From: Fibrobacteria bacterium
GTDB lineage: Bacteria > Fibrobacterota > Chitinivibrionia > Chitinivibrionales > FEN-1185
Length of the DNA: 64,000 nucleotides
Reading direction: 5' to 3'
Assembly (NCBI GenBank): GCA_037447435.1
Contig: JBBIGR010000011.1
Coordinates: forward strand, 32,001 to 96,000
Shown: piece after piece, positions 17,759 to 62,642 of the stretch
How positions within the stretch are numbered: the first letter of the stretch is position 1
Layout: every line of letters starts with the position of its first letter
Notes under the pieces: generated by a model
What the model was told of the DNA's origin: nothing
The model's input: the letters and a program-made list of their open reading frames with translations, nothing else
Databases searched by the model: none
Position numbers and translations under genes: made by a program

Positions 17759-18622
17759 TCAGTTGCCAATTTTATAGGTTGTTCGGAATTTCCAAAGAGG
17801 AGAACCTTTTGCAAAATGAGGCATGAGCCTGCCTCGAGCAAGGGTATGCGAAAAATAGGGTTGGCGAACTGCGCGTGCAATAATATCCTGAACCGAGTCA
17901 TATGAATATGCACCCCACAACGGTATGATATCGGCAAAATTTTTTCCTTTTAATACGTACGACGTTGCATGGGTATACCCAACTTTCTTCGCAGCATTCC
18001 AAACTCGTTCGTCAACCCGCCCGAACGGGAAAGATATGCTTGTCACTTCCTTTGCTATGATATCCTCAAGAATTCTTTTTGAATCACACAATTCTTTTAA
18101 TAATTCGGAATCCGAGAGTAACGTTAAATTTGCATGTGTCAATGTATGGCTTCCGATTTCATGCCCGAGCGAACTGATTTCAATAATTTGGCTTCTCGTT
18201 AAGTGGGTTTGCTTCGGCAATGCGTCCCATGATGATGTTTTGCCAAGAAAGCCGGCTACAGGGAATACAGTCGTTTTTATTCCATGACGCTCGCAGATGG
18301 GCAATGCTTTTGAATGAAACGTATCAAACCCGTCATCAAAAGTCATTACTATGGAATTTCGACGAGACAACGGAGGTAATGATGAAAAATGAGAAACCGT
18401 TACAAATCGAAACCCTTCACCACGAAGTCGGCAGAGAAGCGAGTCGAATTTGAATGAAGAATAATATGAACAATGCATTGCCGGAATATCAGAAATGGAA
18501 TGAAAAAGTAAACCGATGGGCCCGCTTGATCTTTTCTTTTTACCGAAAAATAAAACAGCGAGTATGCCGCATAAAAATGGAAAGGCAATAATGGAAAATA
18601 GTAATAAAAAAAGTATGTTCAT
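17759..18622 (-). CDS. Membrane-anchored polysaccharide deacetylase (CE4/NodB)
   Basis: N-terminal TM, TFDDG, HEIGSHTLTH, SFPFG. Confidence 0.88.
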   Translation of the reverse strand: MNILFLLLFSIIAFPFLCGILAVLFFGKKKRSSGPIGLLFHSISDIPAMHCSYYSSFKFDSLLCRLRGEGFRFVTVSHFSSLPPLSRRNSIVMTFDDGFDTFHSKALPICERHGIKTTVFPVAGFLGKTSSWDALPKQTHLTRSQIIEISSLGHEIGSHTLTHANLTLLSDSELLKELCDSKRILEDIIAKEVTSISFPFGRVDERVWNAAKKVGYTHATSYVLKGKNFADIIPLWGAYSYDSVQDIIARAVRQPYFSHTLARGRLMPHFAKGSPLWKFRTTYKIGN

Positions 18623-18643: not shown

Positions 18644-19510
18644 TTAATGGTTTTGTTGACGGTTAAAAATTTTCGACAATAGATTGGAATCGTTCTTTTT
18701 CTTTGCGCCGGTAGCGCCTTGTCTTGCTTTGTTTTTAAGAAAATTTACCGATGTGTAATACAGATATTCGGTATTGCTTGGCGGCGGAACACTGCCTGTT
18801 TTTATGGGTGAGCCGCTATTTGAAATGCTTTTTTCAAGCTCTGATGTCGTAGTTGGAACCTGTTCCGAAACCTTGGCTGGAGTTTCTTGAATCGTAAATT
18901 TTTGGGTCGCGGGAGGGTTCGGATGTCCGGCGGCAATTTCATCGGGATTAACCAGATTTTTTTTCCCGATATTTTCCGTTTGCTGTGTCTGAGATTGCAA
19001 AGATGATTGTTGCTCGGGGTTAAAAAAGGAATCAATTCCTTTTTCAACATCATCATCTGACATGGTTAAAGAAGGCATTGCCACAGGGCCAGAAAGCATT
19101 GTTTCTATATTTTGTTTAATTGCAAATAGTGCCGCTTTCAGTTCCTCTATATGGCGAGCAACGCTTGAAGAAACAGCCGATAAGGAAATTTGGCGGTCAA
19201 ATATAGCTGCACAAATCGTGTCGTCGTCGACAAGCGTGATAAGAAGATTTTTTGTTTTTCCGCAGTGAGACATCATGCTGAATTCCTTTTCGCCAATAAG
19301 GCCAGCAATTCCCTGCGTGGAAGCGAAGCTTCCAACAATGAGGGCAGCAAGTGCGGACATGTCGAAAAGGGCCAACGTTCCCTGGCTGGCAAGAAGCCTT
19401 GTATCTTTATTAACAAGGATCGCCGACAGGATCTTCGTCTCAAAAACAAGACTTTGCAGAATCGAATTCAACCTGTCGATGTCTTCCTTGTAAAGGATGA
19501 CGTCGCTCAT
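18644..19510 (-). CDS. mglB: MglB-like Roadblock/LC7 protein with long C-terminal tail
   Basis: [22 protein letters not shown] motif; ATGA overlap with mglA. Confidence 0.82.
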
Positions 19511-20853
19511 TGAGGTTTGTCTTTATTAAATATTTTGCCAAAGAAGCCGCTTTGCGGTTTTGTCTTCGGATTAACCGGCCTTTTTATTTTTTTTCTCTGA
19601 CGATCTGTGTTGACAGAGGTGAAATAGAGAGGCTGTTCCTCTTCGCCGGGCTGCAACGGCTCTTCGGAGTAATTCTGTTGCGGATATTGCGGAATTTGCT
19701 CCGCAGATTCCTCAGGCGGTTCATAGACGTTGTAACTCCCTTGTTGCGGAGGAGGATACGCTATTGGTTGTGTTTGTTGAGGGGAAGCCGGTTGTTGCAA
19801 CGGTTGGGGTTGCTGTGCCGATTGAAGGTTTCGTAATTTACGTTGTTTTTCTTCAATTTCTCTTTGATATTTTTCAATTTCCAAATCAAGTTCTGTTTTT
19901 TCGGCGGACGACGGTTTGAGTTCTTGACTGGAGTAACCAGATGTTTCAGGTTTTTGAAATGGTGATGATGCTTGAGCCGACATTGGTTCAAGGTTAATGG
20001 CGCCATAATCATAATAATCTGATGCCGGCGGTTGTTGCATAGGCGCTTTAGTAGGAGCCGGTTGAATCGGAGTAGGTTGCGGTACCGAAAAAATGTCTTG
20101 TTGCGGCATTGGTTGCGCAGCAAAAGGGCTCTGTTGGGCAATAGGTCGTTGCTGTTGTTGAACAAAAAACGGATCCTGAGCTGGAACAGGCTTGGGTTGT
20201 ATGCGTTGAGGAGCAGGCGAAGCTATTGGGGCGGCTTGAGGTGTCGGAGCCCCATAGGTTGGTCTGGCATATTTTTTATTCAAACTGTCGATAACAATTT
20301 TTCCAATTATTTTAAGCGATTCGAAAACGCCTTTGCCCTGGCTGGCAACGGCTTCATTCCATTGGTATCCTAATTTATTAACGGTTTTATCAATCGCTTC
20401 TACAGGGAGTGCATTCGGAAGATCTCTTTTATTGTATTGCAAAACAATCGGGACGCTTCCTGGTTGATAACCATATTCAGCAAGATTGTCATGAAGGTTT
20501 TGAAGGCTTTCAAGGTTTTCCTGCATTTTGTCTTGAGCAGAATCAACGACAAACACAACGCCATCAACGCCGCGCAAAACAAGTTTGCGGGTTGCATTAT
20601 AATAGACTTGCCCCGGAACCGTGTACAATTGAAACTTTGTCGAAAAACCTTTGATCTTGCCTAAGTCAAGCGGCAGAAAATCAAAAAACAAAGTTCTGTC
20701 GGTTTCAGTGGCCAACGAAACCATATCACTTCTATAATCAATGGGGATTTTCCGGTGAATAACCTGTAAATTTGTTGTTTTTCCGCTTAGCCCAGGACCA
20801 TAATAAACAATTTTTACACTAATTTCCCTTATTGCGTAATTAATGGAAGCCAT
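19507..20853 (-). CDS. mglA: MglA small GTPase with about 250-aa Pro/Gln-rich tail
   Basis: [44 protein letters not shown]. Confidence 0.92.
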
Positions 20854-21018: not shown

Positions 21019-22071
21019 TTAATCCTTTTTACTTATATCGCATTGGGATAATAATCCTTCTTTAACGAGCGCTGTAACATCGGGAGCGTGGAAACCTTTC
21101 TCAAAATGAAACTGTATTAATGCAATTCGCCGTTTTTGGTCGAATCTGTCCTGGGAATATTTTTCTTTAATGGTCAAACATTGATCGACTCGATTTCTGA
21201 GAACCGTCTTTTGCAAAAAGAAAGAAGCCGCTGAAATGCCTGCAATTGCTGCAATGATCATAATAACGGTTGAAAGCGCATAAATTGAATTTTCCCATGA
21301 GGAGGTTTGTTCGCGAGCGGCAGGTTTTGCAAGTGGAGATTGCTTAACAGATGAAGGAGCGATTTCAGACTCCATCCATAGCCCGAAGATTATTTCATAC
21401 ATCCTGTAAGTAAAAAATACCGATTTTTCGCAAATCGAGCCGACGGAAGATGTCCCGTCTATCAATGAATGAACATAGCCGACGGGATCGTACAACGGTG
21501 ATCCAAGCGGAGATGTAGTCTTTTTTCTCGAACCGTTTGGAGAAATTGAAAAAACGGTTTCGTCGGAAATGTTACGATGCATTCTTTTCCACTCATCCGA
21601 TCTGCGCATAGCTTCCATGGTGATAGCATCGGCAGGAAACATGACGCCCGCAATAATGTATTCATCCATACTTTCTAATGAATCAAATCTGTATTGGCCG
21701 TCGTCCCATAAAAAAAGGCTGCACGCTAAGTCTTCAATGCTCATTTTTAAAAGCGAAATCAACTCCTCGCTTGTAAGGTAGTTTCTGCTCGTCAATTCCT
21801 GCGAAAACAATCGCATTTCACCTTGACATAAAATAAGAAGTTCGTTGAGTTCGGCTTCCGAATATCGTTTGGCGAGTATTAAATAGTTGAATAAGAATGT
21901 TTGTAAATTGCTGTCGGCGTTTCCTGCGGCAACAATTTTCCCCTGTGAAAAAATCACAAAACCTTCCTCTTGGCCGTACGAAAGTACCAGTTGTCCGGTT
22001 TTCCCGTCATGAGAAATCAATTGGAAAATATCCGCCAATTGAAATTCACGCAAGCTGCCCCTTAAAGCCAT
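21019..22071 (-). CDS. DUF4388 domain protein with C-terminal TM
   Basis: MALRGSLREFQLADIFQLI...KTG.L, LFLWDDGQYRF, MEAMRR.DEW. Confidence 0.85.
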   Translation of the reverse strand: MALRGSLREFQLADIFQLISHDGKTGQLVLSYGQEEGFVIFSQGKIVAAGNADSNLQTFLFNYLILAKRYSEAELNELLILCQGEMRLFSQELTSRNYLTSEELISLLKMSIEDLACSLFLWDDGQYRFDSLESMDEYIIAGVMFPADAITMEAMRRSDEWKRMHRNISDETVFSISPNGSRKKTTSPLGSPLYDPVGYVHSLIDGTSSVGSICEKSVFFTYRMYEIIFGLWMESEIAPSSVKQSPLAKPAAREQTSSWENSIYALSTVIMIIAAIAGISAASFFLQKTVLRNRVDQCLTIKEKYSQDRFDQKRRIALIQFHFEKGFHAPDVTALVKEGLLSQCDISKKD

Positions 22072-22072
22072 A

Positions 22073-24178
22073 TTATTCTCCCCGAATTTTCATTTCTTTA
22101 ACAAGCAAAGATGCTGCGCGCCCGATAAAAAACGCGTTATACAAAACGCACAAGACAAAAAACGGCAAAATAACTCCATGTAAAAGCCACGATGGAAAAA
22201 CAATGGCTGGGAAGAGAATGAATGAGTAAATTCCATAAACGATGCTTGTTAAAAGTAGGATGGGAATCGACAGCCACATCGTCGAATTTCTTTGGACCAT
22301 TCCTGCACCGGGAAAAACAACATCGAGGATCAGGGCCCGCAGAGAAGAAAGACGTACGCTTTTAAATTGGATCTTCGACATTATTCTTTGCCGGATGCTT
22401 TCGTTGCGGATATGTTGGGTCGAGTTAAAGCAATCCTGGCAAATTCCTCCTCGTTTGCATTTACGGCAAATAGGTGTCTGGCACAGCTTGCAAGAATAAA
22501 TTTTCTTGACAACATCGCGGGACCAAACGGTCATATCCGATACTATCAGGATGCAAAAAAGAATAAGTGAAAGTATTGCATAAATAAAGAAGGAAAAACC
22601 AAAAAAAGTGACGCCGAACCTTTTGTCAACGCCTTGCGAATGGTTTGCGGAATACGTGAAAATATGTTTCCAAAAGTAGCCCGGAGTATAATCGGGTGAT
22701 ATTAACTGCCTGGCGATGGGCCAATCTTTGGAAAAAAAATCATCGCTTATTTTAATATGGGAATTTATCAGGAGTGGATTTATCCTTGCTGCTTTGGAAA
22801 TATACTCCATACCTTTTGCTGTTTCCATTGCATTAAAAAAATATTGGCCGCAATTAAAATAGGCTGGCGCAAAATTAAAATTTGATTCGATGCATTCGAG
22901 ATAGGTGTTTTTCGCTTCATTCAGCTGGCCGGATTGGTACAAAACATTTCCGAGAACGGTGAGTACGACCGGGTCTGTTGGAGCCAATTGCTGCGCTTGT
23001 CTTATGTGAGATAACGCATTTTGGGTATCTTGCTTCCTTAAATATGAAACTGCCATGCCCGTATGAATCAAAAAATTCGACGAATTTGTTTGTGTTGACT
23101 TTTGTAAATATTCCTCAAATTCAGGATAATATCCTTCGTCGAGCGATTTTTTTAATAACATCGGTGCGCTTGCAGGGTCATTGCACATGTAAAACATATC
23201 GTCGACCTTTAAATTTAAAGGATATAGCATGAAAATTCCCAAGACTATACCTCCAAGGACCTTGTCGCGACCGTGCAAATGGCGCCAAAGGAGGAAAAAA
23301 GTGATCCAAATCCATGCGGTAAATCCAATAAATATCAAAGCGAAGAACAGTGCGCTCGATAATAAAACCCTGGTTTTAATGCTATATTTTTTGGGAAGCA
23401 ACTCCGAAACCGAATGCAATGATTGGGGGAGGTATTTTGCCAGCAAAGTACCAATAATTCCTACGACAAAAAATTCGAATACAATGGTAAGCCAGGTGTG
23501 TAATTGGTAAACAAGTTCCAATTGAATTTCCCATGAATTCAATACCTTTTCGTACAGATCCTTAATTTTTAAAAAAGCATTTTGGGGGTTTGGGTAGAGG
23601 TTCGATTTAATATCTAATATCAATGGCCATATGCAATTCCTGTCGAATATGCCTGCCCAAGATCTCTGGGAACCGTTTAATGAGCTTGTCGAGGAATAAA
23701 CATCGTTATACAAAAGGATTTGGCTAACTAATGGCGCCGATTGGATACCGCGCATCAAGGACAATAGCCTCAATTTTGTAAGACATTTTTCCTGCCACAA
23801 AGGTAAACCGCAGCGTTCAAATTCCAAAGATAATGCAAAAATCGATCCGGGATCCGATTTGGTTGCGGAAATGGCTTTCGAAAACCAAATAGAAGAAACA
23901 GATGCGGTATCATTGCTGTTTGCTAATCCGATGCAAAAACAATACCATACCGACATTGTGTCAAAAGTTAATGTATTTACGTTGATGGAAAACCCTGAAG
24001 CCGGATACAGGGATAATCGTGTTGAGTCTAAGCCGGTCAATTTAAATACGCTATCCCGGGTGGTAAGAGCGGAAATGAATTCGGATTCCCAAAGAATAGG
24101 CAATTCACGGGCTGTCGATCGAATGACCGACAACGAAATAATTATGAGAAGCGCACAGGAAATAAAACGATTTTTCAT
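22073..24178 (-). CDS. Multi-TM TPR protein with Cys cluster
   Basis: Signal peptide, TM helices, TPR-like repeats (LGNVLY, AYFNCG), CKLCQTPICRKCKRGGICQDC. Confidence 0.7.
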   Translation of the reverse strand: MKNRFISCALLIIISLSVIRSTARELPILWESEFISALTTRDSVFKLTGLDSTRLSLYPASGFSINVNTLTFDTMSVWYCFCIGLANSNDTASVSSIWFSKAISATKSDPGSIFALSLEFERCGLPLWQEKCLTKLRLLSLMRGIQSAPLVSQILLYNDVYSSTSSLNGSQRSWAGIFDRNCIWPLILDIKSNLYPNPQNAFLKIKDLYEKVLNSWEIQLELVYQLHTWLTIVFEFFVVGIIGTLLAKYLPQSLHSVSELLPKKYSIKTRVLLSSALFFALIFIGFTAWIWITFFLLWRHLHGRDKVLGGIVLGIFMLYPLNLKVDDMFYMCNDPASAPMLLKKSLDEGYYPEFEEYLQKSTQTNSSNFLIHTGMAVSYLRKQDTQNALSHIRQAQQLAPTDPVVLTVLGNVLYQSGQLNEAKNTYLECIESNFNFAPAYFNCGQYFFNAMETAKGMEYISKAARINPLLINSHIKISDDFFSKDWPIARQLISPDYTPGYFWKHIFTYSANHSQGVDKRFGVTFFGFSFFIYAILSLILFCILIVSDMTVWSRDVVKKIYSCKLCQTPICRKCKRGGICQDCFNSTQHIRNESIRQRIMSKIQFKSVRLSSLRALILDVVFPGAGMVQRNSTMWLSIPILLLTSIVYGIYSFILFPAIVFPSWLLHGVILPFFVLCVLYNAFFIGRAASLLVKEMKIRGE

Positions 24179-27417: not shown

Positions 27418-28379
27418 AAATAAACCGGTTTTCAATTTTATTTGATGCGATTTTTCTATGTAGACCCGTTTTATTAGTCCCGGTGTGGGTTTTTTGTCTG
27501 TTTGGATATTTTTCAGGGATAAATTCCCCGAAAGAATTTTCTATTTCGGCAATATGGCACATGTCAATTCGCGAGTGTTTTTGGATCTTTATATTTTCTT
27601 TATCCGTAGGCTCCGTTTATGTGTTAAACCAAATTAATGACAGAAAAGTAGATGCGCTCAATGGAGGCTTCGCGTTGCTTATTAAAGGAAAAATTCCCTT
27701 ATGGGTAGCATGGGCGACCACCTTTCTTCTTGCAGGAATTTCAATCGTTCTTCCCATGCTGTGGTGTCCGAGACTGGTTCTTTGGTCCTTATATTCCCTA
27801 ATTCTTGGCATTATTTATTGTATAAAGCCAATGTATTTTACCGGTAGGCCGATTTTGGATTTCACAACAAATGCTTTAGGCTACGGTGTAGTTTCGTTTG
27901 GCGTAGGCTGGTTGTTAGCTGGTCAAACTTTCGATATGAATTTTATTAAAGCGTGTTGCCCCTATTTTTTTATGATGTGTGCCGGCTCCATAAGTTCTAC
28001 TTTGCCGGATTGTAACGGAGATAAGCTGGCAGGCAAAAATACAACCGCCGCAAAAATTGGCCTTATGCCGGCGCATTTGTTGTCTATGGGGTTTCTTCTA
28101 ATTGCATCAATTGAAGCTTATTTATTTCACGATTGGATTGCCCAGGCTTGTATTCTGGGGAGTTTTCCATTTTATACATTTTTAGTTTTTCGTAAAAAAT
28201 CCCAAATAGCCATTGAGGCAACTTATAAAGGCGGATATATCGTTTGTATGCTGGTCTCATGCATAATTTTCCCTGCGATTGCTTTGGCAACCGGATTGGT
28301 TTTTGTATTAACCGTGTTGTATTTCAGGATCCGATATAATGTGTTATACCCTTCACTCGTTCCAATTAAACATGAATAA
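27411..28379 (+). CDS. UbiA-family integral membrane prenyltransferase
   Basis: Asp-rich motifs NQINDRKVDALN and PDCNGDKLAGKNT; many TMs; overlaps upstream stop. Confidence 0.85.
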   Translation: MVKINRFSILFDAIFLCRPVLLVPVWVFCLFGYFSGINSPKEFSISAIWHMSIRECFWIFIFSLSVGSVYVLNQINDRKVDALNGGFALLIKGKIPLWVAWATTFLLAGISIVLPMLWCPRLVLWSLYSLILGIIYCIKPMYFTGRPILDFTTNALGYGVVSFGVGWLLAGQTFDMNFIKACCPYFFMMCAGSISSTLPDCNGDKLAGKNTTAAKIGLMPAHLLSMGFLLIASIEAYLFHDWIAQACILGSFPFYTFLVFRKKSQIAIEATYKGGYIVCMLVSCIIFPAIALATGLVFVLTVLYFRIRYNVLYPSLVPIKHE

Positions 28380-29391
28380 ATTGCATTTATTTTCCCTGGC
28401 AATACTTTGCATGTTTGTTGGGCACGCTCTGTGTTTTGTACTTCAAAACACTCAAAAAGAGTACGTCGATTCTATTATGACAAATATAATGAATTGCAGA
28501 TTCGATTCGGCCGATAGCCAATGCGACCGATTAATTAGCAACGATACACAGGATCCTTTAGGATTAGTGATGCGAATGTCCTCATTTGCATTTTGGGATC
28601 TTGATTGTGATCATCCTGCCGATACAACACAATTTTTAGATTTGTATAAAAAAACCTCTTCTAAAATTATTGCATATGAATCCCGATATGGTGCGTCTTC
28701 CTATTCTAAAACGTTAAAAGGATTTTCAAAAGCCGTTCTTGCCTGCTATGATCTTTGGCATAAAAGCTATTTGTCGGGCCTTAATATCGGTTTTGGAGCT
28801 CTTGATGATTTAAAGGAAGCAAAAAGAATTGATGTGGAAAATACAGATGCCGACTTCTTTATCGGACTTTACAATTACACTCGTGCAGATATGAAAAAAA
28901 TGTTTTGGTGGGCTCTTTTCTGGTATTCCGGAGACAAAGAATCCGGAATTAAAAGTATACTGATGTGCAAAAAAAACGGGCAAATTATTAAACCGGTCGC
29001 TGCCTTGGTTCTTGCCGAGCTATGGATACGGGAAAAAAAATATTCTGAGGCGAAACACCTGATCAAAGAATTGGAAACAGCCTTTCCTAAAAGCAGGTTC
29101 GTAAAATGGACACATGCGAAGTATTTCGAGTCTCAAAACGATTTATCGTCAGCGGCGTCTTTATACGGCGAACTTGCGGATGAATATTCTAATTTGCCAA
29201 AAGCAATTAAAAATGAGCTTGCAGCCCGATTAAAAGAATCGGCACTGTTTTTTGAAGCAAATAATTTTGCTGGTTCGAAAGCTGCTGCAAGTAAAATTAT
29301 TTCTTATAAAAACAACGTTTCTGATCCGCTTATTAAACAAGCTGTTAGAGATGCAGAAAAAATAATAAGAAAAATTAATGCCAAATCCTAA
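28372..29391 (+). CDS. Secreted helical/TPR-like protein
   Basis: Signal peptide; DADFFIGLYNY; GDKESGI; all-helical. Confidence 0.6.
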   Translation: MNKLHLFSLAILCMFVGHALCFVLQNTQKEYVDSIMTNIMNCRFDSADSQCDRLISNDTQDPLGLVMRMSSFAFWDLDCDHPADTTQFLDLYKKTSSKIIAYESRYGASSYSKTLKGFSKAVLACYDLWHKSYLSGLNIGFGALDDLKEAKRIDVENTDADFFIGLYNYTRADMKKMFWWALFWYSGDKESGIKSILMCKKNGQIIKPVAALVLAELWIREKKYSEAKHLIKELETAFPKSRFVKWTHAKYFESQNDLSSAASLYGELADEYSNLPKAIKNELAARLKESALFFEANNFAGSKAAASKIISYKNNVSDPLIKQAVRDAEKIIRKINAKS

Positions 29392-48313: not shown

Positions 48314-49921
48314 TCATGATAAATAAATTGGACTTGTTGCTGCAAATGAAGATGATCCGTCATTTTTTCGGCAGGTCAATTCTGCTCGCAGGTACCCTTT
48401 CTCCAGGATGTTAGTAATAGGAATGGTTTCATTTTTTTCGAATTCATTATTTGAATAATTGGTATTATAAAACAGTACTTCTTTTTTTTCTGAATATTTT
48501 CCCAAAAAGAGTTTTAAATTATCTAGGCCCCCAAATTCATAATTGCTTTTAATAATAGCAGTTATTGAATTTGTACCTAAACGTATTGAGTTGCAATAGG
48601 TTCCTGTATTGCTCAAAGTGTCGAATTGGCTTAATTGCAAGTAAGGTCCTGAAGTTACAAACGTTGCGCCGTCTTTTATAGCTTTTGCTATATCATTTAC
48701 AGATAAATTTTTACCATAAATACCGGTTTTGGCAAAACCTAAAAACCTCTCAAAATCCTCGGCAATTGAAATAAATGGCATGGAAATATACCTGTATCTA
48801 TTAAAATCGCCATGAGAATCATTTCCTGCAACCAAAGATATTTTTCTTCCTTTTAGTAATTCATTGATCCACAAAGCTTTAGAAATATTCCATGATTTTT
48901 TAAAACCATTATTTACCGCTTGAACCGCATCAATGTCCTGCATCATATCGGGCAGTTGCCAACTTCCGCGTTTAAGTAAAAGCCTTTGTAGAACTCCGAA
49001 TCTTGATCCTGGATGCGCTGCGATTGCCACACCGCCTTGACTATGAATGTTTTGAATTGCGTCTTTCAAATTAAACGTACCAAGCTTATTCTTTCTTGCC
49101 CCATCGATGCATCCGGCAATATAATTGCGGATATTTAATGCACATAAGTGGATAGAACGATTCTCAGAATTAATGCATGAGATTTCTTCTCCAAGAATTA
49201 AAATCTTTTTTAATTCTTGTTTAGAATCATTTAGAAAAGCAATCCATCTGCTTAAGGTAGCATCGGATTTTAAAAAATCATCAAGTCGACATGCTAAATC
49301 GTATGAATGATCGGTAATTGAGTAAAAATCCAGACCCGAACTATCGATCATAGTGTCTATAATGTTTATCGGCGGTCCAAATTCAATATGGCTTTCTGAA
49401 TATTGAGAATGAATATGAATATCGCCAAATAAACAAGAATTGGATCCGGGCAATTTAAATTCGGAAAGCAAACAAGTGAAGGGCATTTTTGACGTTGCAA
49501 ACAAATTGTCATTTAAAACGTCCCAGCAACGATTGCGATTGCTGACCGTCGCTTTGCAATTAATGTAAGAAACACCGCTTTCCAATGATTTTCTATCAAT
49601 TGAGAATAAATAAATATCCGATTTATTTTTCAATGAGTGTTCAACTTTATATTGTTCTGGATCGTTAAAAATAAACGGTACGGGCTTTTTTCCTTTTTGA
49701 GAGATCGCTATTGAAACGTTTTCAATTTTTATTGGAAAGCGGTTGATATCATTACAGATTAGCATAATTGGCAAATTCTTGTCAGGATCGATCCGGCGAG
49801 GCAAATCAAATAAAATTTCAGGTTCTTTTCGAAATAATAAACTTGGAAGTAGTTTGAAAAACTTAAAATGAGTTTCTGCATAAAGCAGTACAGCAGGAAT
49901 TTGAAGCGAAGGAAATAGCAT
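48314..49921 (-). CDS. PHP-domain metallohydrolase (CehA/McbA-like) with N-terminal extension
   Basis: GDIHIHSQYS, ITDHSYD, GEEIS, AAHP, GNDSHGD, FVTSGP. Confidence 0.82.
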   Translation of the reverse strand: MLFPSLQIPAVLLYAETHFKFFKLLPSLLFRKEPEILFDLPRRIDPDKNLPIMLICNDINRFPIKIENVSIAISQKGKKPVPFIFNDPEQYKVEHSLKNKSDIYLFSIDRKSLESGVSYINCKATVSNRNRCWDVLNDNLFATSKMPFTCLLSEFKLPGSNSCLFGDIHIHSQYSESHIEFGPPINIIDTMIDSSGLDFYSITDHSYDLACRLDDFLKSDATLSRWIAFLNDSKQELKKILILGEEISCINSENRSIHLCALNIRNYIAGCIDGARKNKLGTFNLKDAIQNIHSQGGVAIAAHPGSRFGVLQRLLLKRGSWQLPDMMQDIDAVQAVNNGFKKSWNISKALWINELLKGRKISLVAGNDSHGDFNRYRYISMPFISIAEDFERFLGFAKTGIYGKNLSVNDIAKAIKDGATFVTSGPYLQLSQFDTLSNTGTYCNSIRLGTNSITAIIKSNYEFGGLDNLKLFLGKYSEKKEVLFYNTNYSNNEFEKNETIPITNILEKGYLRAELTCRKNDGSSSFAATSPIYLS

Positions 49922-56115: not shown

Positions 56116-58392
56116 ATGAAATTTGTCAGTATAATTTTAATCTTTGCCGCCCTGGTTTTTTCAAAAGAAGCTTTAAAACCCGTTCGAGTCGTCGCATCCG
56201 GTGAATCGCATGCGATGCTTTCCGCATGCGATTGTCCCGTAGAACCGGGAGGCGGATTTTCCAAACGATCGTTTCTTCTCGGCCGGGTTCGGGATACGTT
56301 TGATTTGCTGCTCGTCGATGCGGGCGGTTTTGCCGGCGGCGGCATATACGATCCGTATACTGAAGGAAGAAAAATCGATTCTTTAAGGACCATGGCAGCC
56401 ATTGTGGCAATGGGAAAAATGAAATATGATATAGCCTGCATCGGCGATGATGATTTGCAATACGGATTAGCGTGGCTGCTTTCACAGGCGAAAACGAATT
56501 CGCTAAATCTTGTTTCCGCCAATTGCTATACGTTTGATAATAAACGGGCGACCCAACCTTACTCCATTGTGAAAAAAGGTACCTATTCGATTGGAATAAC
56601 CGGTGTGACAACGCAGGAATCCTTGCTGGCGCAATCCGATTCATTTGTGATTAAAGAGCCGATTAGTTCGCTTAAATCAATTTGGAATGATCTTAAAAAA
56701 CAGTCCGATTTTCAAATAATTTTGGCCCATGTCGGAGAAGCGTTAAGCAAACAAATACTGGACTCTTTTCCCGAATGCAAATTAATCGTCAATGGTCATC
56801 GAAAAAATACGACGCAGGAATATAATACGAAAAATGGCCAGGTCATGCTGCAATTCGGTTTTCAGGGAAAGTCATTGTCGTTTGCGGATATCGTTGCCGA
56901 CGGTAAAGTTCCTGCTGTCGGAAAAACAGGCTGGTATGCAATAACCCCGAATATCCCCGATGACCCGCAAATAGCAAAACTTACTCAAATTAATAAAGAC
57001 AATAAAACCGCAGACGGGAAACAGGTTTTGGATCTTTATATAATGTCCCAATGTCCGTATGGGTTGCCGGCATTAAAAGAAATGATGGGGCTTATTGATG
57101 CCTATCCATCGCTTCAGTGGAGCGTTTGGTTTATTGGATCCGTCGATTCTGCCGGGAATTTTTCCTCGCTCCATGGGCCTAAAGAAGTGAATGATGAACT
57201 TTTATGGCTGTCGGTTCAATCCTTATACCCGGATAAATGGCTTTCGTTTCTTAAAAAACGGTCCGCTACTTTGCAGATATCAACGGAATCGATACTCCGG
57301 GAAATGGGTTTGGATTTGACTAAAATCAATGATTGGAAAGCCAAAAAAGGAAATGCGGAATTACGAAAACATTACGAACGATCGATTCGTATGGCGATTT
57401 ATTCTTCACCGACGTTACTGATCAATAATACGCCGTACCAGCTGGAAATTAAAAAATTCAGATTATCTAAAACGATTTGCGAAACCATGTCGGGGCAAAA
57501 CGCCTTTTGCGATTCATTGCCCGAATGTGAAACAAATGAGGACTGTAAAATGCCGGGGAAAACCGGATACTGCAAAAGCGTCAAAGGCAAAAAAGCTTCT
57601 TGCGAATTTCACGAGGCCCCTCGGTTTGCCGTGAAAGTATTAATTCCCGATACTTCGCGTTTCCACCCCGAGATTCCGATAATGTCAAGTATTGCCGACG
57701 AATTTCCCGGCGCACTATTCGATACGGTTCGAATCGGATCGACGGCTGGCAAATCTATGGAGAAGAAATTCGGCCCTCGTTTTTTGCCTTTTTTTGTATT
57801 TGACAAAAAAATCGAAAATACCGTGGGCTTTTCCGCTTTTTCATCGCAAATCTCATTGCTTAAATCCGGCTATATTTTTAAAGACGGTATGGTGAAGCCG
57901 TCGTATTTTTACAACAGGCAAAAAAAGCCCAATTCGTTGACGATTTTCACGGACCCATTATTTAAAGGTTCTCGCGATGCTCTGCGAATGGTCTTGGATA
58001 AAAAAGAAATCCGATCTAAAATCAATATTCAACCCATTATTTTTGAGAAACCGGACACATCGATTTCTGCCGAAGAATCGATAAGGCATGAAGAAGCATT
58101 GAGATGGCTGATGATCCAAAAAGAATTTCCGGAGAAATATTTGGAGTATCTGGTTCTGTATTGCAATAGAAAAAACATGAGCTATTGGTTCACCGATTGC
58201 CAAAAAATCGGTATTCCAGTTGACTTGTTAGTACAAAAAATTCAGCAAAATCCGAAGGAACTATTATCCTATTGGGAAGAGACAAAAAACTTTGGAATGC
58301 TTGAGCCGGTGGAAATACTTTGGGAGAACAGGGAAGTGATTGCGGTAAAAAATCCAAAGGAATTCATGGATGATTTAAAAATGATACGCTGA
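56116..58392 (+). CDS. Secreted multidomain protein: UshA-like metallophosphatase fold plus thioredoxin/DsbA-like domains
   Basis: Signal peptide; SACDC....GGFSKR, LLVDAGG; LYIMSQCPYG..SSLHG..EV; SPTLLIN; Cys-rich linker. Confidence 0.65.
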   Translation: MKFVSIILIFAALVFSKEALKPVRVVASGESHAMLSACDCPVEPGGGFSKRSFLLGRVRDTFDLLLVDAGGFAGGGIYDPYTEGRKIDSLRTMAAIVAMGKMKYDIACIGDDDLQYGLAWLLSQAKTNSLNLVSANCYTFDNKRATQPYSIVKKGTYSIGITGVTTQESLLAQSDSFVIKEPISSLKSIWNDLKKQSDFQIILAHVGEALSKQILDSFPECKLIVNGHRKNTTQEYNTKNGQVMLQFGFQGKSLSFADIVADGKVPAVGKTGWYAITPNIPDDPQIAKLTQINKDNKTADGKQVLDLYIMSQCPYGLPALKEMMGLIDAYPSLQWSVWFIGSVDSAGNFSSLHGPKEVNDELLWLSVQSLYPDKWLSFLKKRSATLQISTESILREMGLDLTKINDWKAKKGNAELRKHYERSIRMAIYSSPTLLINNTPYQLEIKKFRLSKTICETMSGQNAFCDSLPECETNEDCKMPGKTGYCKSVKGKKASCEFHEAPRFAVKVLIPDTSRFHPEIPIMSSIADEFPGALFDTVRIGSTAGKSMEKKFGPRFLPFFVFDKKIENTVGFSAFSSQISLLKSGYIFKDGMVKPSYFYNRQKKPNSLTIFTDPLFKGSRDALRMVLDKKEIRSKINIQPIIFEKPDTSISAEESIRHEEALRWLMIQKEFPEKYLEYLVLYCNRKNMSYWFTDCQKIGIPVDLLVQKIQQNPKELLSYWEETKNFGMLEPVEILWENREVIAVKNPKEFMDDLKMIR

Positions 58393-60920: not shown

Positions 60921-62642
60921 TTAAAAAACGAAATCTGATGAAACCGGTAAATCGATTTTTTTATCTGTTTCAAAAGTAAAAGCCTTGTCGTTGTTTTTAA
61001 TGATAACCGTATTTCCCGATTTTGAGATTTCAGTATTTTTTAAACCTTCACGGTTTTTTATGACATTCATCAGGCAAATGGCTTTTTCCATTCCATCCCC
61101 TCGTTTGTAATTCCAAACTTCGTCCGGTTGGGCTAGCCGGGTACTGTCGTAAATGGAACTGTTTTCCATGTCGCCGAGCAGGGCATACACCGCATCAAAT
61201 TCAAGAGCGCCGGTTCCCGCAAGACAAACGGGGTTTCGTTCAAAAGCCGCTTTTAAAAACGGTTTCCAGGGTGAATGCGACAAGTCCCTGAATGCTGAAA
61301 AAGCAAGAGCTGCCGTTTCGTTTTTATCTTTTATTGATAGGAGATATTCTATAATTTGCTCGCGGCCCAAGCTTGTGTCGATGGAAATGATTTGAGATGC
61401 ATCCCATTTTTTGCGTTCGTCGGGCAACGACGGATTTATTCTACAGAAGGCAATAAGGTCTTTTGTAACACAGTCAACATTATAACATCCGTGATGGAGA
61501 TGTTTTTGCAAGTCTTCCAAAGACGGGGGATGGTCTAAGGAGACTTTATTCGTTTTGAAGAATTCCTCGACTTCATCCAAAAGCAATCTGCTTTCCATGG
61601 GTTCCGTATAAAATTCATCTTCGTCGATTTCATGAAGCAACTGCGCTCTAGTCGTATCGCCGACTTTGAATTTGCTGTTATGCTCGTAGGAGTACACTTT
61701 TTCAGCTTCAATATATCGGGGCTTTCCGCAGCAGAGATGTGCAATTTGAAAGCATTTCTGGAGTTTGCTGTTTTGCCTGAGAAAATTTGCCAGAATTTCA
61801 AAGGTTATATCCGTGGTTAAAAACTTTGAAATTTTCATTTTGAACGTTTGATACGATTCCGGCGAAATGGTCGCATTCGGATACAAGGTATGAATAAAGC
61901 CCGTGTTATTGCTGACTATGGTTATCCGTTCATGCTGTATGGCCCGTCTTGCCTTTTCACTCAATTCAGTGCCGTTAAACCACATGTTTTTTGTGACAAT
62001 GCGCCTATTATTCGTTATCACGCCGTCGTTGACATCGACAAAGTTCTGCGAATGCAAAGGAGTAGCCATTAAATAAATTTTATCCAAAGGAATCTTTGCA
62101 ATGACAAACAATGCCGCAGCATATAACGTTGCCAAAGAAACGCATTCACCCGCACCGGAGGAATAGTTGGGTTTAAATTTGAATGCCTGCATTGCTTCTA
62201 CGGTTTCTGTTTTCCAATAGGGAATCACATCGGAATTGTATTTGTCGAGACCGAAATGGCGGCGGATGTCTATGTCGAAATAATATTTGTCGCCCTCATA
62301 TCCGAACAAGGCATTGCTTTGAGATAATGCGTCTTGTGAAATGAAAGAAGAAAAGCGGGCCATTTCCTTGTCTTTGGTCGTAAGCCCCCACGTGTCCAAA
62401 TCCAAATTGAATGTAAAATGGTCCATGATGTATTGCTTTACACGCAATAGCCGGCGATAGGGGTTTTGTTTTTCCAACCCGTCGAACCAGGGATCTTCCC
62501 CCCATTTCCATAATAACGGGGACATCGCGTTGGCAAGAACCAGCGAATACAAAAGTTCCGGGAAAATAAAAACTTCCATATCCGACAAAGTAATTGCTGA
62601 GGAATATTTTTCCAATGATGCCGGATCGTCGAGATTATACAT
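60921..62642 (-). CDS. Conserved hypothetical protein with transglutaminase-like Cys-His-Asp core
   Basis: GECVSLATLYAAALF..A.IP...LHSQNFVD; second degenerate core QPDEVWNYKRGDGMEKA. Confidence 0.6.
   Translation of the reverse strand: MYNLDDPASLEKYSSAITLSDMEVFIFPELLYSLVLANAMSPLLWKWGEDPWFDGLEKQNPYRRLLRVKQYIMDHFTFNLDLDTWGLTTKDKEMARFSSFISQDALSQSNALFGYEGDKYYFDIDIRRHFGLDKYNSDVIPYWKTETVEAMQAFKFKPNYSSGAGECVSLATLYAAALFVIAKIPLDKIYLMATPLHSQNFVDVNDGVITNNRRIVTKNMWFNGTELSEKARRAIQHERITIVSNNTGFIHTLYPNATISPESYQTFKMKISKFLTTDITFEILANFLRQNSKLQKCFQIAHLCCGKPRYIEAEKVYSYEHNSKFKVGDTTRAQLLHEIDEDEFYTEPMESRLLLDEVEEFFKTNKVSLDHPPSLEDLQKHLHHGCYNVDCVTKDLIAFCRINPSLPDERKKWDASQIISIDTSLGREQIIEYLLSIKDKNETAALAFSAFRDLSHSPWKPFLKAAFERNPVCLAGTGALEFDAVYALLGDMENSSIYDSTRLAQPDEVWNYKRGDGMEKAICLMNVIKNREGLKNTEISKSGNTVIIKNNDKAFTFETDKKIDLPVSSDFVF

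Follow-up and report, generated by a model that had tools for sequence, protein, structure and literature searches.

A long-tailed MglA-MglB pair of Chitinivibrionales with a predicted membrane-targeting end and tail motifs that track type IVa pilus genes

An mglA-mglB locus encoding two extended proteins

The window, a 64,000-nt stretch of DNA from a Fibrobacteria bacterium (order Chitinivibrionales, phylum Fibrobacterota), encodes an MglA GTPase and its Roadblock partner MglB, both carrying long C-terminal extensions (Table 1). Searches covered 33,944 stop-to-stop ORFs of at least 60 aa from the 5.05 Mb genome (G000). The two genes overlap by 4 nt, and mglB lies within four genes of mglA, the coupling expected of a Group 1 MglA. 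The initial annotation had pointed out a gene order reversed relative to Myxococcus; the order is as described, but it is nothing peculiar to this genome, as mglA precedes mglB on one strand at all 66 phylum loci having both genes. Promoter and terminator scans of the locus gave nothing above shuffled sequence. Elsewhere, G000 encodes two PilT proteins, PilM, PilB and flagellins, while bactofilin, MinD above the family cut-off, GYF_2 and the MJ0042 zinc ribbon were not found in this genome, the GYF_2 control having matched nothing either.

Table 1. Features of the mglA-mglB locus in window coordinates
Feature	Position	Strand	Description
Polysaccharide deacetylase gene	17759..18622	(-)	Common downstream neighbour within the order
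mglB	18644..19510	(-)	288 aa; sole Roadblock gene found in the genome
MglB C-terminal amphipathic segment	18659..18685	(-)	8/48 order MglBs, six from this family and two from f4
Predicted MglB helix 247-275	18686..18772	(-)	Holds older YL-x-LKNK motif, split by the insert; motif in 26/48 order MglBs
Box1 copy in MglB (LYYTSVN)	18743..18763	(-)	6-residue insert, limited to genus g1
Myxococcus-type acidic Ct-helix of MglB (aa 151-163)	19022..19060	(-)	MSDDD aligns with MSDDD of PDB 6izw
MglB Roadblock/LC7 fold (aa 1-140)	19091..19510	(-)	pLDDT mostly >90; homology
mglA	19507..20853	(-)	448 aa; MglA G domain and tail of ~250 aa; sole MglA detected in G000
MglA C-terminal amphipathic, MinD/FlhG-like segment	19522..19548	(-)	Likely membrane-targeting; hydrophobic end pattern, helical-face analysis
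MglA Box2 (KRPVNP)	19567..19584	(-)	Within polybasic stretch; 43/49 order MglAs; absent exactly where PilM was not found
MglA Box1 (LYFTSVN)	19609..19629	(-)	Strict form in 36/49, loose form in 43-44/49
Pro/Gln-rich linker	19630..20268	(-)	Predicted disordered; P 19%, Q 18%; pLDDT mostly <50; three conserved internal motifs
Internal motif M3 (Y[DN]VY)	19720..19737	(-)	25/49 order MglAs
Internal helix M2 (aa 320-344)	19822..19896	(-)	Possible coiled coil; 35/49 order MglAs, 3/4 in family f17
Internal motif M1 (YG.[IV]N[LF])	19981..20016	(-)	23/49 order MglAs
MglA G domain (aa 1-195)	20269..20853	(-)	P-loop, R53, T54, T78, Q82, NKRD, K181/K185 of allosteric pocket; model
DUF4388 (PATAN-like) protein gene	21019..22071	(-)	Hydrophobic stretch close to C-terminus; conserved upstream neighbour, 52/75 loci
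Multi-pass membrane protein gene, TPRs and Cys-rich segment	22073..24178	(-)	Conserved upstream neighbour

The MglA and MglB cores are ordinary

The cores of both proteins are ordinary, with catalytic residues intact. Residues 1-193 of MglA match solved MglA structures (E = 1e-73 to PDB 3t12 and 2e-71 to 6h17), and R53, T54, T78, Q82, K181 and K185 are invariant across 43 aligned MglA sequences. All residues diagnostic of Group 1 are present, namely a GxxxxGKT P-loop, the intrinsic Arg53, Thr54, a G3 motif with Gln82 (PGQ) and NKRD, but the length of 448 aa lies beyond the 150-240 aa that PMC4316618 gives as a working cut-off for the group. The window's MglA is thus a long-tailed variant of Group 1 rather than a canonical member.

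The Robl_LC7 fold of MglB is homologous to that of M. xanthus MglB (E = 1.5e-35), and residues 150-157 align with the Ct-helix of that protein, which is described as acting on the helix 5 pocket of MglA and speeding nucleotide exchange (PMC6785124). Both the acidic Ct-helix and the matching basic residues on MglA helix 5 are found here; among relatives, the Ct-helix pattern occurs in 5 of 6 f1 MglBs and is rare elsewhere. With 288 aa, the protein falls outside the 129-179 aa reported as typical of close MglB homologues (PMC4316618), and 27 of the 48 order MglBs are longer than 200 aa. The ~150 extra residues that had been annotated as disordered are a real extension, but one that includes the Ct-helix (151-163) and a predicted 29-residue helix (247-275) containing LYYTSVN. 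The MglB extensions described in PMC6785124 are acidic helices or proline-rich stretches.

An order-wide MglA tail ending in three conserved parts

MglA was present in 172 of 201 phylum genomes. Of the 73 order-level genomes with an MglA match, 49 contributed whole proteins, as did 25 genomes from outside the order that were hand-picked for spread; the counts exclude five short paralogous MglAs, G158 (broken frame) and genes cut by contig ends. Every one of the 49 order MglAs has a tail, ranging from 95 to 632 aa. AlphaFold2 folded the G domain and a helix at residues 321-344 (pLDDT ~90) of the full-length protein and returned the remainder at low confidence. A profile of the tail drew only chance chemokine matches from the PDB.

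The tail end was initially annotated as a bipartite motif, an account that overlooked Box2: MglA has three parts, Box1 ([YF]FTS[VI][ND]), Box2 (P[VI]NP) and a MinD-type amphipathic end. The positions given for LYFTSVN and LYYTSVN, and the linkers of 24 (MglA) and 23 (MglB) residues separating them from KIFN, were correct. Outside the order, f15 keeps the hydrophobic end (7/7) with different upstream boxes, and families f10, f16, f17 and f19 have other terminal motifs and no hydrophobic end (0/18); within this set, the Fibrobacter-like f10 tails end in IELRPY (end helix 0/11). The MglA tail is old and its end order-wide.

Box1 and Box2 are lost together with PilM and PilN

The two boxes follow the type IVa pilus genes. 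Among the 49 genomes, Box2 and PilM were both present in 43 and both missing in six, with no discordant case; further loci scored by eye added eight with both and two with neither (the added negatives belong to genus g22 and are not independent), for totals of 51, 8 and 0 discordant across 59 of the 73 genomes. The six Box2-less MglAs comprise four from g22 as well as those of G022 and G010, and Box1 is gone in five of them and degraded in G010. PilM was not found in g22 (0/7), g17 (0/1) or g6 (0/1), and a PilN orthologue was not found in G033, G022 or G010, the representatives of the three box-less lineages. In a tree of 64 MglA and MglB cores, on which G010 forms a long branch, the losses map to three distinct clades (g22 in f5, g17 in f2 and g6 in f4). 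Three coincident losses among 28 genera would occur by chance about 1 time in 3,000, a hand estimate that ignores the several markers tried. The co-loss amounts to three independent events, spotted after the fact among several markers, in box-less genomes that are incomplete (G022 90%, G010 94%); other systems may have been lost from these lineages as well, for instance one like the Agl/Glt-like core reported for Fibrobacter (PMC3169522).

By phylogenetic profile, the PilM/PilN module is the tightest partner of the boxes, because PilB and PilC persist in some box-less genomes: PilB was not found in g22, but a diverged copy (50%) is kept in G022 and G010, and PilC is kept in G022. Both proteins, tracking the boxes only in part, were set aside as partners by co-occurrence. 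Since the evidence is co-loss, it speaks for a shared pilus function and not for direct contact. On these sequence comparisons, we lean towards Box1 and Box2 serving a type IVa pilus function; PilM would be the first candidate for direct binding of the two boxes, although such binding is itself rather unlikely. One joint model of the MglA tail end together with PilM, PilT (1-340) and PilB (1-235) scored 0.20, short of the mark of 0.32 and with controls not folded, and weighs neither for nor against binding. Beyond the order, the f15 version of the tag is retained by G116, with no PilN or PilB orthologue found and no entry among the PilM matches, and f10 has PilM-like genes in 78 of 78 cases yet no end helix (0/11).

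Several other candidates were discarded. PilT, searched as a family, has paralogues in 40 of 41 genomes and does not discriminate. The flagellum is rejected as the co-lost system, since G010 and G022 still encode flagellin and it is missing from six genomes that have the boxes. An 863-aa TPR protein encoded close to a pilT paralogue also persists in 4 of 4 PilM-less genomes. Genome size does not account for box loss (6.3 Mb for G022; 2.2-3.4 Mb for the box-positive f9 genomes), and a reading of Box2 as imitating the INLLP motif at the PilN N-terminus fails on inspection by eye, the two leucines being missing. The DUF4388 neighbour, which the initial annotation had offered as a docking candidate, is disfavoured as a Box1/Box2 partner, being discordant with the boxes in both directions: it is kept in box-less genomes and was not found in box-keeping g16. 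For the proposed docking site, the unexpected pointer is the joint loss of Box1 and Box2 with PilM/PilN, not this neighbour.

A predicted membrane-targeting segment at the MglA end

A strict pattern detects the hydrophobic end on 47 of the 49 order MglAs, and a relaxed pattern on every one. Drawn as a helix, the MglA and MglB ends each place F/L, F/L, I and F on one face, within 90 degrees, as the initial annotation had anticipated, but the hydrophobic moment taken by itself does not stand out: among 3,084 long-ORF ends, 38% and 23% reach values as high. The MglA segment has the attributes of a MinD-type targeting sequence, that is, C-terminal position, one hydrophobic helical face and basic flanks, and the same C-terminal pattern is carried by the genome's MinD-family FlhG-like protein, encoded downstream of an flhF-like gene. 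Across the genome, the pattern, which was defined after the sequences were seen, occurs in 8 of 3,093 long ORFs. AlphaFold2, which models no membrane, gave the MglA tail end a pLDDT of 43-54, assigned just 3 residues of its end segment to a helix and left the MglB end as coil. The segment persists in genus g22, where every other tail motif is lost; the residues after it vary freely, with acidic runs following some ends (g12).

MinD offers a precedent in which the terminal helix is weak and two copies are needed, and in which the activator MinE carries a helix of its own (PMC6803595). For MglA, the helix and basic stretch are likely to bind membrane weakly, and more strongly when doubled, as in an MglB dimer or if M2 were to dimerise MglA. 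The suggestion that both GTPase and GAP are membrane-tethered is supported for MglA order-wide (47-49/49), and tethering of MglB is plausible in this family.

A Box1-like insert in the MglB of one genus

Box1 occurs on 5 of the 48 order MglBs, all in genus g1, where G001 raises the count to 6/6; Box2 is absent from every MglB. In two alignments, the copy (YFTSMN or YYTSVN) is a 6-residue insert within an older MglB helix. The MglB of the closest relative (P0041) reads YYTAVN, a sister genus (G007) has a degraded 5-residue insert, and a third genus of the family (G006) has a tail-less MglB of 133 aa. Because AlphaFold2 predicts residues 247-275 as one helix containing the insert, the copy in MglB may take a shape other than that of Box1 in MglA.

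As initially annotated, the match between the two proteins lies at the protein level, since third codon positions seldom agree: the window has agreement at 2 of 7 codons and five further genus genomes at 1-3 of 7, hence 1-3 of 7 across all six. Recent gene conversion from mglA to mglB left no DNA-level signal. When the MglB tail was shuffled 5,000 times, 90 shuffles matched the MglA tail at 6 of 7 positions somewhere along its length; a match within 5 residues of the same C-terminal distance occurred in 0 of 200,000. With this family left out, a profile of MglA tail ends placed the window's MglB second of 33,944 ORFs, though only at E = 0.095, and gave E = 3e-4 to 0.04 for the MglBs of four other genus genomes. 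Within the genus, whole MglBs are 54-57% identical and their tails otherwise diverge, yet the insert is held in 6/6. The copy may derive from mglA, or it may have arisen by local duplication and then converged.

Only mglA and mglB match L[YF].TSVN among the 33,944 ORFs. When a profile of 37 tail ends was run against 1.84 billion representatives, it retrieved 66 proteins, of which 28 include parts of a G domain and the other 38 resemble fragments of MglA tails; a motif check and inspection revealed no Roadblock or other recognisable N-terminus among them. A word-based search yielded 39 proteins, 38 with a GTPase Pfam and one truncated MglA. The call for further tagged proteins in the genome and beyond therefore turned up only MglA, MglA-like tail fragments and the MglB of genus g1. 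Nor did the idea of a shared address tag as a general design hold, with Box1 on 5 of 48 order MglBs and Box2 on none; across the order, Box1 (43-44/49 in its loose form) and the end segment (47-49/49) are widely kept on MglA, compared with 5/48 and 8/48 on MglB. The sharing between MglA and MglB is recent and narrow, with Box1 on the MglBs of genus g1.

Discussion

The tailed MglA/MglB switch, end-anchored as we read it, is real and conserved, and we did not find it described in the literature searched. Our preferred model, held at close to but below even confidence, is that this Group 1 MglA is probably tethered at the inner membrane through a MinD-type tail helix and likely docked through Box1 and Box2 at the base of the type IVa pilus, and that the MglB of genus g1 gained a similar helix and a Box1 copy bringing the GAP there. 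The tip of the ~250-residue disordered tail would anchor MglA to the inner membrane, the two boxes, beside the anchor, would park it at the pilus base, and the G domain on its long leash would stay free to act on effectors. By analogy with Myxococcus and Thermus, the tethered G domain would turn pilus activity on at one pole: in Myxococcus, MglA governs type IVa pili and MglA-GTP recruits PilB through SgmX (PMC11580455), and Thermus mglA and mglB mutants are reported to misplace their pili (PMC12024867). In this genus, each MglB dimer would have a pair of anchors and a pair of Box1 copies, which would enrich the GAP where MglA is docked. That the MglB copy functions in this way, competing for or sharing the site, is a tentative proposal. 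Improbable as we judge it, a bolder version would have the Chitinivibrionales MglA plug directly into the pilus base, with Box1-Box2 on PilM and the helix on the adjacent membrane, dispensing with the adaptor cascade of Myxococcus; one genus' GAP would then have captured the docking motif and anchor, and competition for one membrane site would make a MinD/MinE-like pattern-forming pair from a Ras-like GTPase.

Where the boxes dock could be read differently. The leash may be real and the boxes pilus-related while their partner is a polar adaptor (SgmX-, FrzS- or RomR-like) that was lost with the pili, rather than a core pilus protein, the MglB copy then being incidental. Co-loss cannot separate direct from indirect partners, and Myxococcus MglA itself reaches PilB via SgmX, for which direct contact with PilB or PilM was looked for and not detected (PMC11580455). 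We nevertheless consider an adaptor unlikely: neither candidate tried, the DUF4388 neighbour or the 863-aa TPR protein, follows the boxes, and the GYF_2, MJ0042 and bactofilin searches of G000 were empty, with the GYF_2 control silent everywhere. Quite improbable is a Box1 that acts within the module, folding back on the G domain or the Roadblock dimer, so that the MglB copy would displace the MglA tail in a cycle of auto-inhibition and release. There is precedent for such mimicry, as a single MglA pocket may be contested by the MglB Ct-helix and a RomR helix (PMC6785124) and, in GltJ, MglA-GTP and a zinc ribbon take turns on the linker (PMC11135422), and the copy does occur solely on MglA's own partner. 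However, the tail end is predicted at low confidence in full-length MglA, and the box-less lineages keep MglB and G domains 70-79% identical to that of the window's MglA, such that a change in the module does not explain the loss.

A further pair of alternatives concerns the two ends themselves. The terminal hydrophobic-basic segment could be a protein-binding motif or degradation signal and no membrane anchor, a view that can draw on its ordinary moment, the lack of a confidently predicted helix and the acidic runs after some g12 ends. The FlhG-like protein ends in the same pattern, however, and the segment is kept independently of Box1, Box2 and pili. In most C-terminal degrons the last few residues are not freely variable, unlike the residues that follow the MglA segment. 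Taken together, these points make a non-anchor role very improbable. For MglB, the resemblance might be neutral, a short tandem duplication within its helix that looks like Box1 by chance, next to a common type of amphipathic end. By eye, the insert could derive from duplication of the flanking TNYLY, a 6-of-7 match anywhere appears in 1.8% of shuffles, and the missing DNA-level trace of copying, the absence of Box2 and the drift in P0041 and G007 fit as well; the matching C-terminal distance (reproduced in 0/200,000 shuffles) and the retention of the insert in all six genus genomes despite diverging tails speak against it, and on balance we find neutrality somewhat unlikely. A neutral resemblance would leave the conclusions on MglA intact.

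The preferred model of a membrane-leashed, pilus-docked MglA gains interest from the clean split of the tail end into an anchor independent of pili and a motif dependent on them. How MglA finds a pole and activates pili has been worked out mainly in Myxococcus, where several adaptors intervene; here, a 25-residue stretch of tail provides a bait for how a bacterial Ras-like GTPase contacts the pilus machine. The MglB insert provides a dated case of a regulator gaining the targeting motif of its target. Because PMC4316618 left out sequences longer than 240 aa, a whole phylum of tailed MglAs lies outside that standard survey, which does note PATAN neighbours. The module may also control polar attachment to substrate, since Fibrobacterota are described as attaching to cellulose, and perhaps chitin, by type IV pili (PMC4704652).

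Comparison with known systems

The closest known system is MglA-MglB of Myxococcus xanthus and Thermus thermophilus (PDB 6izw, 6h17, 3t12), which shares with the window's pair the intrinsic Arg finger and Gln, a Roadblock partner from the same operon, the MglB Ct-helix with K181/K185 of MglA, and a link to type IV pili. Those proteins are tail-less, at ~195 aa (MglA) and ~160 aa (MglB), in contrast to 448 and 288 aa here with a motif array and amphipathic ends; the mglA-mglB gene order and the upstream TPR and DUF4388 membrane proteins are further differences. In layout, MglA resembles eukaryotic Ras-family proteins, in which the hypervariable region follows the G domain as a variable linker, a basic stretch and a terminal membrane anchor. 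This likeness is convergent: MglA has no CAAX or lipid modification signal, and its linker is much longer and contains several conserved motifs.

With MinD/MinE and FlhG, the pair has in common the short C-terminal amphipathic segment with basic flanks, and, as for MinD and MinE, NTPase and activator would each carry one such segment (PMC6803595). MinD is a SIMIBI ATPase, though, whereas MglA is a TRAFAC Ras-like GTPase with its anchor on a 95-632-residue leash, and nucleotide-dependent dimerisation is not known for MglA. An MglA with an extra C-terminal region already appears as 'MglA2' or size group 2 in PMC3000849 (225-327 aa, including a Fibrobacter succinogenes protein of 313 aa), where the region is called 'of unknown function' and, in the available text of that paper, the tail goes unanalysed; the Fibrobacter-like f10 tails, with their IELRPY end, differ from the window's MglA in lacking the amphipathic end. 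Our literature search, covering mainly openly accessible journals, returned no description of an MglA membrane-targeting tail, a tailed MglA of Fibrobacterota or a contact between an MglA tail and PilM. The proposed contest of short motifs in disordered regions for one site recalls the GltJ linker and the competition between the RomR and MglB Ct-helices (PMC11135422, PMC6785124). In those cases the motifs sit on effectors or regulators and bind MglA, whereas here the GTPase itself carries one motif, of which its GAP has a copy.

Tail motifs of MglA and MglB

Within the MglA tail end, which comprises Box1 ([YF]FTS[VI][ND]), Box2 (P[VI]NP) and an amphipathic MinD-type end, the spacing between Box1 and Box2 shows little variation, unlike that between Box2 and the end helix, where poly-Gln runs of up to ~13 residues intervene at four loci (L095, L099, L103 and L166). 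The Box2-to-end-helix spacing in MglA is free to vary. Outside the order Chitinivibrionales, the MglA end motif is conserved within each of four families but distinct per family (see table); these motifs are possibly diverged versions of Box1-Box2. Strong divergence was also seen in the PilM of family f10.

The MglB tails of family f5, inside the order, carry an acidic-aromatic motif, [DE][VI][FY]Y[ILM][DE] (L100, L107, L110 and L112), that resembles the internal MglA tail motif M3 (Y[DN]VY), and DYEVY is present in MglB of another Fibrobacterota genome, G007 (L094:183-1046). Motifs may have been shared between MglA and MglB tails in more than one episode. MglBs of family f4 (L117:3273-4154 and L118:3616-4431) have a hydrophobic end segment without the six-residue Box1 insert, which argues that the MglB anchor predates the insert or is independent of it.

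Genomic context and related genes

Across much of the phylum, mglA is preceded by genes for a TPR membrane protein and a DUF4388 protein. Searches against Pfam at E 1e-8 gave no match for four long window ORFs, 48314-49921 (-), 56116-58392 (+), 60921-62642 (-) and 28339-29391 (+).

Several f5 genomes encode a second, short MglA (206-230 aa) that is tail-less (L160-L164), for which no adjoining mglB match was found. Genome G020 has a tandem pair of mglB genes 3´ of mglA (L126:4447-5432) and, at a separate locus (L058:1480-3165), encodes a long-tailed Roadblock protein of 554 aa that contains a hydrophobic stretch.

Features in the window, the source genome (G000) and other Fibrobacterota
Feature	Location	Strand	Remark
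TPR membrane protein	window 22073-24178	-	four-pair Cys segment; precedes mglA
DUF4388 protein	window 21019-22071	-	precedes mglA
MinD-family protein	G000:C31:43438-44253	+	downstream of flhF-like gene
Diverged PilB orthologue	G022:C248:1398-2090		PilB kept; PilM and PilN not found
Diverged PilB orthologue	G010:C2:124125-124724		PilB kept; PilM and PilN not found
f10 MglA end motif	L150-L159		IELRPY
f15 MglA end motif	L134-L141		GIV[ST]TYED with KLP.P
f16 MglA end motif	L146-L147		LDIKP[YF]
f17 MglA end motif	L142-L144		YPT.R[ML]P

The hydrophobic-basic C-terminal pattern of MglA and MglB also ends the MinD-family protein of the source genome, which is probably FlhG.
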